Notes: a model not told the origin generated them from the sequence alone. DNA of 58,417 nt from a virus (IMGVR_UViG_3300009109_000006:1-58417), one strand, 5' to 3'. Positions 3,236 to 47,211 are shown, counted from the stretch's first letter. Numbers and translations: made by a program.

Positions 3236-3441
3236 GCCGTCTCCTTTCTGTCGGTCAGTCGGTCCACGACCATGAGGCCGTGTGCCTTGGTGCAACGGTC
3301 GCAGTAGTAGTCGCCGTGCCCCTCGTAGAAGTCATCGAAGGCGTACACCGTGGCGACGTTCACGCACCGCTCGTCGGCCTTGGGCACCCAGCCTCCTTGG
3401 CATGGCCTGCCGTGATCCGTGTGAGTGATGGTGTTCTTCAC
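3232..3441 (-). CDS. Small Cys-rich hypothetical protein
   Basis: GTGA-coupled to neighbours; CxxC motif. Confidence 0.6.
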   Translation of the reverse strand: MKNTITHTDHGRPCQGGWVPKADERCVNVATVYAFDDFYEGHGDYYCDRCTKAHGLMVVDRLTDRKETA

Positions 3442-4004: not shown

Positions 4005-4451
4005 TCATGCTCGGGCCTCCATGTAGATCCGGCGGGACTCGTCCATCCGGGCGGCGCACTCAGCGACGGTCCACTCCACGCGGTGGTGGTATGGGCTGCC
4101 GTCGGCAGGCATCAACTCCAGACCGTTGCCGATCTCGTTGAGGATGAAACCCTCCGGGCACGGGACGGTGATGTTGCCGTCGTCGGTGGCCTTCTCGCCA
4201 GCGAACACGACCGGGCCGACCAACTTGTGGGCGTATCCGGTCCACTGGCGAGCGATCATGGAACCGACGAGGTTCAGGGTGAAGTCCTGACGCATCAGCC
4301 CCTCCTCGTTGACCCACGCCACGACGCCTCCGGGGAGATCGACTGCTTCGATGTAGCCGTCCACCAGAGTGGACAGGTCCGCGTAGGTGTCGTCGGTGGG
4401 GACGACGCGGAAGGCGTCGCCGTTGTCGTTGATTACGAGGTAGTTCTTCAT
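4005..4451 (-). CDS. DUF3846-like phage protein
   Basis: LVDGYIEAV, VNEEG, N..GS and LVGPVVF pattern; AAGGAG RBS. Confidence 0.75.
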   Translation of the reverse strand: MKNYLVINDNGDAFRVVPTDDTYADLSTLVDGYIEAVDLPGGVVAWVNEEGLMRQDFTLNLVGSMIARQWTGYAHKLVGPVVFAGEKATDDGNITVPCPEGFILNEIGNGLELMPADGSPYHHRVEWTVAECAARMDESRRIYMEARA

Positions 4452-4479
4452 GGTGTCTCCTTGTTGGTGGTTGGTAGTC

Positions 4480-4524
4480 GTCCCCGCCCTGGGCTTGCAC
4501 CAGGGTGCCGACTAGTCGGGGGGC
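4480..4524 (-). other. tRNA-minihelix-like structured element, copy B
   Basis: CCCCG-ACUAGUCGGCA-CCCUGG-UGCAAGC-CCAGGG-CGGGG-AC. Confidence 0.6.
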
Positions 4525-4525
4525 G

Positions 4526-4867
4526 CTAGCAGCGTGCTGGGGTGACCTTCCTAGCCACCTTGGTGACTCGCTCTCCCCAGAACGTGTGCGCTGCAACGCA
4601 ACGGGACGCCGACGGCGTGCCCTCTACGTTGTACGGTCCATGGCAATGGACTTGGACACGGCCATCCGGTGTGGTGTCAGCCGAACGGAACTTGAACCAG
4701 CCCCTCTTGCCGCTCACCCGGAATAGCCGACCGGCAACCAGCGGGAGGCAACCGTCCAGGCGAAGTTCCTCGTGGAACTTCCACCCTGCCGCCTCCTTGG
4801 CTGCACGCTGTTCGGCATGGCACTGGCGCAGCGCCTTGGCCGCAGTAGCCGTAGCCTTTGGTGCCAT
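4526..4867 (-). CDS. Hypothetical basic protein
   Basis: AAAGGAG RBS before ATG at 4867; the longer ORF-track extension runs over the RNA gene. Confidence 0.65.
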   Translation of the reverse strand: MAPKATATAAKALRQCHAEQRAAKEAAGWKFHEELRLDGCLPLVAGRLFRVSGKRGWFKFRSADTTPDGRVQVHCHGPYNVEGTPSASRCVAAHTFWGERVTKVARKVTPARC

Positions 4868-4987
4868 ATCATCACTCCTTTCAGGTCCGAACATTGAAGG
4901 CTGTTCGATGAGCCTGTAGGTCAGTGAGAGAGCAGTGCCAGGAGGACACACACAAGAACGGGACCACTTGGTCACTGCTCTCTCTTG

Positions 4988-5066
4988 TGGAGGTGCGGGG
5001 AATCGAACCCCGGTCCATTGAGGTCCGTGTACGGCTTTACTCAATGTCGATGCCAATGCCACCCCC
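4988..5066 (-). ncRNA. Minimal tmRNA-like RNA (tRNA-like domain only, no mRNA-like domain)
   Basis: GGGGGUG/CACCUCC-A acceptor stem with G3:U70; stemless D-loop ending UCGAC; helix AUUGAG/CUCAAU; GGAC; T-arm CGGGG-UUCGAUU-CCCCG; CCA not encoded (CAA follows). Confidence 0.8.
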
Positions 5067-5770
5067 GTGTGACCAGCCATTGCTGGCTGGTCGGGGTTTT
5101 TACGCTTGAGATGCCTGCTAGTACAGCGGGGTGCCGCTTGGGTTTTGCCAAGCCTTGGCACTGCTGGCGAGCCAGACAAACAGCACGATGCCAACGTGCT
5201 TTCCCTCACCAGGGATGTCTGCTTTGCAGGAGTTCAGTCCACTGACGGGGTACGGGTAGCGATCCTTGCTCGGCGCTAGGGAGTGTGTACTCCCTGCCGC
5301 TCACCTAAACATCCTGCTGGCTGAGTGGCTTGGGGGACAGCGTGCCTCGGTGACGGTTGGACAACCGCCGCTCAAACGAGCGGGGACGCAGAATGCTGGC
5401 TCCAAGTTCTCTAGCGGCAGGCTCAGTGAGCGTTGCGCCTCTACAGCGAACTGGGGGTATGCAGAGTCGGGACCAGACTCCATGGATGGGCAGGCGTTTC
5501 AATAGCCTCCCGGCCCCATGGCCCCTGGACGAACTCAGATTTGGAAAGAAGCGCAGATGCCACCCCTGGTCCTTGGCTGCTGGCCGCAAGCCCGGTCCTG
5601 CTTTCGGACGCTGGGTTGGTTCCCGCTATGGTCGGCACCTTGATGGTCCGGTCCCACCCTCCCCCGTAGGGGAGGCTGCCCTAGTCGCTTCGCCTGGCTT
5701 GATGTCCTGGCCGCATCTCCCGGTGTTCCCGGTGAGGCATCTGTTGGTTTTCAAGCGCCCGTTGGGCGCT
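5067..5770 (-). ncRNA. Candidate large structured non-coding RNA (or RNA cluster)
   Basis: No convincing ORF; at least nine hairpins including a cUACGg tetraloop (5658-5675); long-range stem 5554-5561/5736-5743; directly downstream of a near-consensus promoter. Confidence 0.55.
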
Positions 5771-5775
5771 CACCC

Positions 5776-5804
5776 ATTCTAGCACACTCTGTCATGGGTA
5801 TCAA
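5776..5804 (-). promoter_or_regulatory. Sigma70/SigA-type promoter
   Basis: TTGATA (5804-5799), 17-nt spacer, TAGAAT (5781-5776) with extended -10 TG. Confidence 0.75.
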
Positions 5805-5905
5805 ATCATTGGCGTAGGGGGCAGTGGCCAGAGACACCATGGAGTCCACCTGCACTGCCCGCCCCACGGGTATAGTCGCCCAACCCAACTCAACAGGAGG
5901 ACTAG

Positions 5906-6202
5906 ATGCTCGGCTGTACCGTTGCCCGCTACCGACCGACTCGCCATGCCCGCTCGGCTGTTCGCTCATTTGAGCGAAGGGTTCAGGCTTGCTATCAGAA
6001 GAAAGGGCAGCACGTTGTACCAGCACTTTGCCGCCCTATTGCCTGCAAAAAGAACGATGGCTGCCAGAGGCATTTCTGGGAAATGAGACACCAACAAACT
6101 GCTGCTTCCAAACGGGTTGGATTGCCGGATACTTTCTGGGCGGCTGCTGCAAAAAGCGCCAGGGCGCTTAGCATTACTATTACTACTACTGAAAAGAAGT
6201 AG
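5906..6202 (+). CDS. Hypothetical basic protein
   Basis: AGGAGG RBS 5 nt before ATG; stop overlaps the helicase start. Confidence 0.55.
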   Translation: MLGCTVARYRPTRHARSAVRSFERRVQACYQKKGQHVVPALCRPIACKKNDGCQRHFWEMRHQQTAASKRVGLPDTFWAAAAKSARALSITITTTEKK

Positions 6203-7473
6203 TGGTGTCTGGAAAAGATGAAGTTCTGTTTCTTTCAGCAGTCCTCAGACAAGGAGATGTAGTAACCCCTCTAGGCTCTGGCGTTACAAAGCATTGGTTC
6301 CACTCCTACCAAGATGAGTGGGAGTGGGTTGACTCTTATGTAAAGAGGCACCGTAAGTGCCCCTCCAAAACTCTCTTTAGAGACAGGTTCCCTGGGTTCA
6401 CTATTCTCAAATCAGATGACGTTGAATACACCATCAACCAACTGAGGGCCTCTCATATCAGGTTCTCTTTGATCGACACTGTTGACGACGTTCTGGAAAG
6501 ACTAAAAGATAGTGAAGACCCTTCTGGGGTTCTTGATTCTGCCTACCAAAGCCTGGCTTCGATTCAACTAGATGCTCATGGCGGGCAAAACGAAAGTGAG
6601 ATCATCTCCGACTGGGAAGGGACATTTTCAGAAGTTGCTCGCCGTTACGAACGGATGCAGGCCCGTGGTATGGCTGGGGTGCCTACGGGTTTTGCCACAC
6701 TGGACCTGCTAACCGGTGGCCCTCAGCCCGGCGACTACTGGATTGTGGCTGCCCGCCTCGGGCAAGGCAAGACATGGACGCTGATTCGTATGGCCTGTGC
6801 AGCCCTGTACGGCGAAGCCGTTGTTCAATACGATGCCTTAGAGCAGTCACGGGCACAGATTGCCATGAGGTGCCACACGTTCCTGTCTAGCCAGTACGGA
6901 ACTGAAGTGTTCAAGTCCATGGACCTGATGCACGGCAAGAACTTTGACCTTGTGGCATACAAGCGATTCTTGAAAGAGTTGAGCGGGAAACTGGATGGTC
7001 GTCTTGTGGTTGATGACACTTCCAGGGGGCGAGTCAGCCCGTCATCCATCGCTGCTCAGATTGAGCGCAATCGGCCGGACATCGTGTTCATCGACTACCT
7101 CACGCTTATGAACGCAGGCGGGGACGACTGGCGGGCCATGGCCGAACTCTCAGGTGAGATCAAGGGCATTGCCATGCGGTACGAGGTGCCCATCGTTGCA
7201 GCGGCTCAAATCAACCGCATGGCGATAGGCAATGATGTTCCTGGGGCTGAGCACTTGGCGGCTTCGGATGCGATTGGGCAGGACGCTGATGCCGTGGTCA
7301 CGATGCGGCAGATGAGCCAGCGTGTCATCAAAATGAAACTTGCCAAGTTTCGGCACGGAATGGACGGGCAGGCTTGGTTCAACGAGTTCTCCCCGAACAC
7401 CGGGCGGTTTGAGGAGATCAACGGCGATGACGCCAAAGACCTCATGGACGAAGACCGTGCCAACGCCGACTGA
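6202..7473 (+). CDS. dnaB: DnaB-like replicative helicase
   Basis: GVPTGF, ARLGQGKT (Walker A), VFIDYLTLM, AAQINR, IGQDAD, KFRHG. Confidence 0.92.
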   Translation: MVSGKDEVLFLSAVLRQGDVVTPLGSGVTKHWFHSYQDEWEWVDSYVKRHRKCPSKTLFRDRFPGFTILKSDDVEYTINQLRASHIRFSLIDTVDDVLERLKDSEDPSGVLDSAYQSLASIQLDAHGGQNESEIISDWEGTFSEVARRYERMQARGMAGVPTGFATLDLLTGGPQPGDYWIVAARLGQGKTWTLIRMACAALYGEAVVQYDALEQSRAQIAMRCHTFLSSQYGTEVFKSMDLMHGKNFDLVAYKRFLKELSGKLDGRLVVDDTSRGRVSPSSIAAQIERNRPDIVFIDYLTLMNAGGDDWRAMAELSGEIKGIAMRYEVPIVAAAQINRMAIGNDVPGAEHLAASDAIGQDADAVVTMRQMSQRVIKMKLAKFRHGMDGQAWFNEFSPNTGRFEEINGDDAKDLMDEDRANAD

Positions 7474-46909: not shown

Positions 46910-47211
46910 AACTGCTCCCTTTGTTGCCTGAAACGCAGGCGCTCCCGCTCAGTCATGGCACCTGCAATGCCATGCTGAAGGCTGTCCTCAATAGACCAGA
47001 TGCGGCAATGGGCAAGAACCGGGCAGGCGGCGCAGATTTCCTTGGCGTCACAAACGCACTGTAACCGATCACAGCCAGAAGGGTGTTGGTCGCATCTGGT
47101 ACTACAGCGGTGCTGGAAAAACAGGTCTGTCTTTCCTTTGCACGCCGCATAGTCAAGCCACTTGCTCTCCCACCACAGAGCATCCGTAGATGGCAATGGC
47201 GGCAGCGTCAT
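46906..47211 (-). CDS. whiB: WhiB-family Fe-S transcription factor
   Basis: W...AAC, CAACPVLAHC, GIAGA.TERER. Confidence 0.85.
   Translation of the reverse strand: MTLPPLPSTDALWWESKWLDYAACKGKTDLFFQHRCSTRCDQHPSGCDRLQCVCDAKEICAACPVLAHCRIWSIEDSLQHGIAGAMTERERLRFRQQREQL

Follow-up and report, generated by a model that had tools for sequence, protein, structure and literature searches.

A hairpin-rich, non-coding stretch between a leftward promoter-like site and a mini-tmRNA in a marine phage genome: tentative reading as the untranslated leader of an early transcript

The phage and the layout of the locus

The window analysed here, namely the full 58,417 bases of IMGVR_UViG_3300009109_000006, is a whole virus record that has direct terminal repeats and is rated complete. 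The phage is a siphovirus encoding a tape measure protein, a major tail protein, a major head protein and a portal, and its replication and repair genes specify a DnaB helicase, a primase, a Pol III alpha-like polymerase, RecA and a ParB-like protein; no integrase was found among the gene families scanned, a scan that covered part of the genome's ORFs. A giant protein of 2594 aa (28637–36418, minus strand) displays an N-terminal region of the head-morphogenesis (minor head protein) type and, near residue 2100, a domain resembling the ParB C-terminus. WhiB-like proteins are typical of actinobacteria and actinobacterial phages, and since the phage possesses a WhiB-like gene (Table 1), belonging to a family that among 14 control genomes matches Corynebacterium only, its host is probably a marine actinobacterium. 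Pieces of the phage have been found in marine metagenomes of four studies.

The genes located left of position 4867 are on the minus strand and those of the DnaB–primase block, from 6202 onwards, are on the plus strand, so that the stretch of about 700 nt with which we are concerned sits in a divergent gap, downstream of a leftward promoter and upstream of a mini-tmRNA. The promoter TTGATA-N17-TAGAAT, that the first-pass annotation had described as pointing into the stretch, is present on the minus strand (5804–5776) with 10 of 12 matches and represents the sole site of such quality between 4400 and 6400. Taken by itself, the match is no better than chance, the sites with 10/12 matches being 3 in the whole genome vs. 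2.0 ± 1.3 expected from a Markov model; it is the position and direction of the site in the divergent gap that render the promoter credible, and a start of transcription would be expected near 5769. A search for a promoter conserved in relatives yielded nothing consistent.

On the other side of the gap, the TATAGT element (5870–5875) may function as a rightward promoter, and the two presumed promoters, placed ~100 bases apart, would constitute an ordinary divergent control region. The 98-aa ORF that opens the rightward unit (5906–6202, plus strand) is an orphan, Cys/Arg-rich and endowed with an excellent ribosome-binding site and a codon-usage score near zero; it adjoins the DnaB gene, is without a family match and bears no relation to the small gene found ahead of DnaB in relatives. 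A dip in base composition (46–49% G+C at 6000–6600 vs. about 60% elsewhere) extends from the end of this ORF into the beginning of the DnaB gene and might represent a DNA unwinding region.

Table 1. Coordinates of the features discussed in the text, numbered from the first base of the window
Feature	Position	Strand	Characteristics
First protein gene of the leftward unit, 113 aa	4529–4867	minus	AAAGGAG ribosome-binding site; phrog_1338, E 5.8e-05
Long hairpin	4926–4984	minus	12 perfect pairs; directly 3′ of the mini-tmRNA, no U-run after it
Mini-tmRNA, 82 nt	4985–5066	minus	RF00023, 64.7 bits, cut-off 47
tmRNA-proximal structured segment	5067–5180	minus	branched stem 5110–5180 plus hairpin 5071–5092
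9-bp hairpin (one of the nine)	5071–5092	minus	GCAA loop; 4 nt upstream of the mini-tmRNA
Hairpin (one of the nine)	5146–5160	minus	
Weak terminator-like hairpin (one of the nine)	5182–5200	minus	6-bp stem followed by GUUUGUCU; −8.4 kcal/mol
Short perfect hairpin (one of the nine)	5202–5215	minus	part of 5202–5480
Short perfect hairpin (one of the nine)	5278–5295	minus	part of 5202–5480
Short perfect hairpin	5354–5367	minus	part of 5202–5480
Short perfect hairpin (one of the nine)	5368–5383	minus	part of 5202–5480
Short perfect hairpin (one of the nine)	5464–5480	minus	part of 5202–5480
cUACGg hairpin (one of the nine)	5658–5675	minus	inside the 190-nt segment; −16.3 kcal/mol
Hairpin at the predicted transcript 5′ end (one of the nine)	5754–5770	minus	7–8 bp, loop AAC; −12.7 kcal/mol
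Sigma-70/SigA-type promoter-like site	5776–5804	minus	TTGATA-N17-TAGAAT; 10/12 matches, TG before the −10
Start of the rightward unit	5870–6202	plus	−10-like TATAGT 5870–5875, AGGAGG, ATG 5906 (98-aa ORF)
DnaB helicase gene	6202–7473	plus	phrog_19, E 9.5e-61
WhiB-like gene	46936–47160	minus	Pfam PF02467, 45.4 bits, above the Pfam cut-off

Coding potential

The stretch had been described as free of ORFs and as a long gap in the genome, and both descriptions hold, the former in the sense that it is non-coding: a codon-usage score, for which 21 long ORFs of the same genome served as the training set, remains, in all six frames of 5180–5900, below that of real genes (0.32 ± 0.15), and the low-coding run extending from 4741 to 6420 (1680 nt) is the longest of the genome, the runner-up being 870 nt.

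Small protein genes of unusual composition could nevertheless have been overlooked, since ORFs of 60–141 aa are present on both strands and the gene caller of the source data predicted a protein of 129 aa within the stretch. However, apart from the codon-usage score, that lies under that of real genes in every frame, neither the called protein nor the 94-aa ORF, the longest of the minus strand, has relatives; indeed, in a search among 5.8 billion proteins the latter found no match and the longest ORF of the plus strand (141 aa) matched itself alone. Twelve distinct frames (10 of the 21 stop-to-stop frames of the stretch, a 116-aa frame at 5736–6083 and the 98-aa ORF) were compared with PHROGs and Pfam and no family match passed the threshold (best E 0.2 with the former; best E 0.027 with the latter, corresponding to 13.8 bits against a cut-off of 25). 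Furthermore, no ORF of the stretch combines a convincing ribosome-binding site with a start codon, the sites being weak or absent and the putative products Arg-rich and junk-like, and ORFs of this kind are, by our own estimate, expected by chance at 62% G+C. Overlooked small genes are thus held to be a most improbable explanation of the stretch.

Local hairpins and global folding energy

The nine hairpins listed by the first-pass annotation are all found on the minus strand at the positions given in Table 1, with energies between −6.2 and −18.0 kcal/mol. When the count is restricted to perfect Watson–Crick pairing (stem ≥6, loop 3–8), 5067–5780 contains 8 hairpins vs. 1.26 ± 1.10 in dinucleotide shuffles, none of the 300 shuffles reaching 8, and vs. 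1.52 predicted from the rate of the whole genome (Poisson P 1.9e-4); tiles dense in hairpins are clustered, within the genome, at 4201–6314. The excess of perfect local hairpins is beyond chance. The centres of the main hairpins (5081–5762) are separated by about 96, 194, 97, 89 and 78 bases, a spacing that looks roughly periodic; no tandem repeat is detectable in the stretch.

The description of the stretch as “densely structured” is borne out by this count and fails for the minimum free energy (MFE) of most of it. Indeed, on the minus strand 5180–5780 folds no better than shuffled sequence (z −0.96; 10 of 60 shuffles equally good; genome background: mean −0.06, sd 1.37, six values from three places only), and 120-nt segments starting from 5180 to 5840 (thus covering 5180–5959) yield z values from −1.5 to +1.4. 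The same applies to the 190-nt domain (5554–5743), whose postulated closing strands CAGAUGCC (5743–5736) and GGCAUCUG (5561–5554) are complementary as claimed but whose folding energy is ordinary (z −1.50; 18 of 200 shuffles equally good). At the 3′ closure of this segment, positions 5557–5566 repeat exactly 5056–5065, i.e., the first ten bases of the mini-tmRNA (minus strand), 501 bases upstream, a coincidence of chance-level expectation.

The whole region attains z −3.17 on the minus strand (20 shuffles only) and −1.33 on the plus strand, the former value being due to the tmRNA-proximal end. In fact, the folding better than that of shuffles that is looked for in a structured ncRNA is displayed only by 5060–5179 (minus strand, z −3.64) and by 4868–5215, a segment comprising the mini-tmRNA together with the hairpins on either side of it (z −3.63; 0 of 100 shuffles equally good). 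Shuffled sequence of 62% G+C is about as stable overall as the real one, and what distinguishes the latter is the presence of many short perfect local stems. A caution follows for any reading based on sequence only: at 62% G+C lists of hairpins are impressive, yet the total folding energy is ordinary.

As to the strand, perfect Watson–Crick stems are identical on both strands and therefore constitute no proof of a role at the RNA level; accordingly, the summed hairpin energies are nearly equal (−96.4 on the minus and −92.6 on the plus strand). The minus strand is favoured by the direction of the promoter and, weakly, by the UACG (5658–5675) and GCAA (5071–5092) tetraloops, which account for two of the eight four-base loops when the minus strand is read and for none of the eight when the plus strand is read, the weakness of the latter support being due to the fact that, by our rough estimate, such an asymmetry is a ~1-in-20 event. 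On this strand, the 5′-terminal stem-loop (5754–5770) may have a stabilising role and the hairpin at 5182–5200 could end or attenuate the RNA made upstream. Read on the plus strand, the strong 5071–5092 hairpin followed by GGGTTTTT (5070–5100) resembles an intrinsic terminator; it faces the mini-tmRNA, and there is no plus-strand gene upstream of it.

The mini-tmRNA and its relatives in other phages

That the stretch leads into a mini-tmRNA is confirmed by the Rfam tmRNA model, which scores 64.7 bits at 4985–5066 on the minus strand. The molecule consists of the tRNA-like domain only, with the G3:U70 pair and with neither a tag-coding part nor an encoded CCA. ARAGORN did not call it, and called no tRNA or tmRNA in the stretch. 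A downstream fold as stable as that of 4926–4984 is found in 5 of 95 distinct mini-tmRNA loci among the matches listed. A perfect 10-base complementarity between 5156–5165 and 4931–4940 brackets the mini-tmRNA and its flanking hairpins and competes with the local 12-bp hairpin of 4926–4984; it may serve as a processing stem or have arisen by chance, 1.4 kb of sequence being expected to contain about one such pairing.

A motif scan of viral contigs returned at least 119 mini-tmRNA stretches, and since 109 of the 119 listed form an acceptor stem with at least six of seven pairs, the tag-less form is common in phages. In most of the mini-tmRNAs listed, helix 2 is closed by a small hairpin (…AAAGCCGCACGCGGA…) that is conserved among them, and CCA is encoded in 23 of the 95 distinct ones among the matches listed. 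In one locus, a mini-tmRNA (3267–3321, minus strand) is accompanied, 2.6 kb apart, by a full tmRNA called by ARAGORN (5905–6228, minus strand), which carries the odd tag AWDYNPMWVQCSA.

The idea that a long non-coding or hairpin-rich upstream region might be a trait of the mini-tmRNA family found no support. The upstream non-coding length, estimated by a crude measure, has a median of 60 nt in the 56 evaluable loci among those listed and is at least 500 nt in 7 of them, the estimate for the phage studied here (1260) being the largest among the loci listed; likewise, the median number of upstream hairpins is 1 per 714 nt (103 loci among the matches listed), and two loci do have 9 and 8 upstream hairpins, but in regions occupied by ORFs. 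In the two loci with the closest mini-tmRNAs among the matches listed, about 80% identical, protein genes reach to about 70–130 nt upstream; both of these phages also encode WhiB-like proteins. Upstream flanks are shared, among the loci listed, only within groups of related phages.

Known RNA families and the case for a dedicated RNA

Searched with the 4227 models of Rfam 15, the stretch contains no family that reaches its gathering score. With the limit relaxed to E ≤ 10, the segments 4800–6300 (1501 bases) and 5060–5810 (751 bases) returned only noise, the best rows below threshold being RAGATH-5 (21.4 bits vs. a cut-off of 50) and a trypanosome snoRNA (18.9 vs. 47), both on the plus strand. 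The first-pass annotation had noted that the end of the 190-nt domain loosely recalls raiA-motif RNA and that large phage ncRNAs such as GOLLD and ROOL often sit beside tRNA genes; the former likeness is not supported, there being no raiA row at E ≤ 10 in the two segments or at the gathering threshold in the entire genome, and for GOLLD and ROOL there was neither an Rfam match nor a homologue with which the architecture could be compared, these three families being, as we take it, contained in Rfam 15. Bacterial RNase P RNA likewise gave no row at E ≤ 10 in the two segments.

The match of the tmRNA model RF00023 is limited to 4985–5066, and that of the permuted-tmRNA model is weak (15.5 bits vs. 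a cut-off of 47) and falls at 4858–5015, outside the stretch. Since none of the minus-strand frames terminates in a peptide resembling a tag, the stretch is not the displaced message part of the tmRNA; a decayed tRNA array was also ruled out, there being no match to the tRNA model at E ≤ 10.

These results bear directly on the premise that the stretch specifies one or more dedicated ncRNAs, such as a companion of the mini-tmRNA acting on the host ribosome-rescue machinery, that could take the form of a roughly 600-nt RNA ending near 5182–5200 or of several hairpin RNAs. The hairpin excess, the occurrence of the UACG and GCAA tetraloops on the presumed transcribed strand only, the combination of a 5′-terminal hairpin with a terminator-like site and the well-folded proximal segment all point in this direction. 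On the other hand, there is no Rfam match, both 5180–5780 and the 190-nt segment fold no better than shuffles, no homologue is found in the collections searched, which leaves conservation without support, and 5067–6210 is unlike the 119 viral mini-tmRNA loci listed. A dedicated RNA is accordingly regarded as doubtful.

In a more specific and quite unlikely version, a phage-specific large RNA (about 600–700 nt) or a string of hairpin RNAs would be made together with the mini-tmRNA and work with it; such an RNA might sequester or divert host ribosome-rescue and RNA-decay factors (SmpB, RNase R, RNase P, Rho) early in infection. If so, it would represent a new RNA class, confined so far to this marine actinophage lineage, and should part of the stretch cooperate with the mini-tmRNA as a functional RNA, it would be relevant to the way in which tag-less phage tmRNAs disturb ribosome rescue in the host.

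Distribution of the stretch: spacer or replication origin?

Comparison of the DNA with phage records gave no match to the stretch. Relatives of the phage were identified through DnaB (62–65% protein identity) in 2 viral and 8 metagenome loci, none of which displays any DNA likeness to 4401–6210 (best E ≥ 1.2) or a match to tmRNA; in two of them the divergent gap measures about 120–200 nt. Against the 119 viral mini-tmRNA loci listed, 5067–6210 yielded a best blastn E of 0.28 over 22 nt and nothing with nhmmer; with 120 bacterial ssrA loci all 122 matches fall within the 3′ part of the tmRNA. No DNA match was obtained with 5 named bacterial genomes, only matches of 23–48 nt, at chance level, with 401 sampled genomes of one phylum, and none with an exact 22-base pattern in viral contigs. 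As to the adjacent leftward genes, viral contigs contain no relatives of the 113-aa protein and two of a neighbouring 148-aa protein, with 35–40% identity. Parts of the stretch itself recur in metagenome contigs from three other studies, which cover 5207–5446, 5495–5653 and 5709–5859, about 0.5 kb of the stretch in total, with 0 differences, an identity that would indicate a young population only.

An orphan sequence, missing from all relatives examined, may be a functionless spacer, either recombined in with the mini-tmRNA or made of decayed genes, in which the hairpins are tolerated leftovers, for instance of old terminators. The lack of a global structure signal, of repeats, iterons and family matches is consistent with such an origin, as is the plus-strand terminator-like hairpin of 5070–5100, which makes no sense in its present context. 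In phage genomes, however, genes are closely spaced and 700 bases of no use are seldom retained; moreover, the stretch belongs to what is by far the longest non-coding run of the genome, its hairpins are five times as dense as in the genome at large, the frames tested bear no trace of a decayed gene and the pieces from the three other studies are identical, though as evidence of a young population only. All in all, a mere spacer is considered rather improbable.

The absence of the stretch from relatives having the same replication genes weighs, instead, against a replication origin acting at the DNA level, activated or primed by transcription from the promoter, with the hairpins forming in unwound DNA or in a primer RNA after the models of ColE1 RNA II and of the R-loop origins of phage T4. 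Its vicinity to the genes for DnaB and primase, where the direction of the genes switches, its location downstream of a strong promoter, its richness in hairpins on both strands and the G+C dip to 46–49% just to the right (6000–6600) would all suit an origin; yet there are no iterons and no tandem or multi-copy repeats, and with 61–63% G+C the stretch is not AT-rich. This explanation is deemed very unlikely.

The stretch as an untranslated leader

Being non-coding and located directly downstream of a well-placed promoter, the stretch is probably made as untranslated RNA. Taking into account its observed non-coding nature, promoter match, hairpin excess, proximal fold and absence from relatives, the best reading that we can offer, held tentatively and at somewhat less than an even chance, is that 5067–5775 represents the untranslated, hairpin-rich 5′ part of a leftward early transcript. 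The ncRNA interpretation of the first-pass annotation is thereby retained insofar as the stretch is non-coding, probably transcribed from a well-placed promoter and enriched in hairpins, and is abandoned as regards one large or several dedicated structured ncRNAs, given the absence of an Rfam match. In addition, folding no better than that of shuffled GC-rich sequence, an outcome by which the annotation itself would have its proposal refuted, is what both 5180–5780 (z −0.96) and the 190-nt domain display; the evidence lends no support to a novel large structured RNA.

Transcription, processing and hairpin functions can be envisaged as follows. RNA polymerase would start at the promoter 5804–5776, producing an RNA opened by the 5′ stem-loop and continuing for about 700 nt without a gene, past the weak terminator-like hairpin 5200–5182, the only site of this type between promoter and mini-tmRNA. 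The RNA would then proceed through the well-folded 5067–5180 segment, the mini-tmRNA and the very stable hairpin 4926–4984 to the protein genes from 4867 down, the mini-tmRNA being presumably cut at its 5′ end by RNase P, trimmed at its 3′ end and supplied with CCA. The hairpins, which are numerous, short, perfect and unrelated to one another, would have local effects and would not assemble into a single large tertiary fold. In general bacterial RNA biology hairpins can protect RNA ends, shield against Rho and guide processing; here they might, in the same way, protect the end of the RNA, hide Rho landing sites and offer nuclease cutting sites around the mini-tmRNA.

Several observations speak against an untranslated leader: the promoter match alone is at chance level genome-wide, perfect hairpins with nearly equal summed energies on the two strands are no proof of a role at the RNA level, the plus-strand terminator-like structure of 5070–5100 is left without explanation, and a leader of such length is atypical of mini-tmRNA genes, whose estimated upstream non-coding length has a median of 60 nt in the 56 evaluable loci among those listed. 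Since in the relatives genes begin almost immediately beyond the divergent promoter gap, both the stretch and the mini-tmRNA seem to have been added specifically in the lineage of this phage. If the stretch is nothing else than a long leader, the architecture would be that of an ordinary, though unusually long, early transcript, and its main value would be to mark the mini-tmRNA as expressed from an early, strong promoter.

Comparison with known systems

GOLLD, ROOL and the raiA motif RNA share with the stretch the phage context, the location beside a tRNA-type gene, a size of several hundred bases and the lack of ORFs, from which the stretch departs in having no Rfam match, no homologues and no overall excess of folding energy. 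ColE1 RNA II and the origin transcripts of phage T4 are untranslated, stem-loop-rich RNAs found by replication functions, and the stretch resembles them in being presumably promoter-driven and untranslated, rich in stem-loops, hundreds of bases long and next to replication functions; unlike what would be expected from these models, relatives of the phage with the same replication genes do without it.

A close parallel to an untranslated leader is offered by the precursors of tmRNA (ssrA) and of operon tRNAs, in which, as presumably here, a promoter and a leader precede a tRNA-like domain that bears the alanine mark G3:U70, requires both 5′ and 3′ processing and is flanked by structure on both sides. 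The flanks of bacterial ssrA are short, far below 700 nt, whereas the phage leader would be about 700 nt long and hairpin-rich; in addition, the message part is missing and protein genes lie on the same presumed transcript.

Finally, a “TLD only” (CDS-less) tmRNA has been described in Mycobacterium phage DS6A (Hudson et al. 2014, PMC4131195; PMC11915505). Such a CDS-less molecule is said there to inhibit tmRNA (PMC4131195, PMC11915505), perhaps, as suggested in PMC4131195, through titration of SmpB. These sources deal with the mini-tmRNA as such, and the passages concerned mention neither an extended leader 5′ of it nor a companion RNA (PMC4131195, PMC11915505). The RNA to which the stretch leads is of the same kind, and in both cases the host is an actinobacterium, probably so for the present phage.
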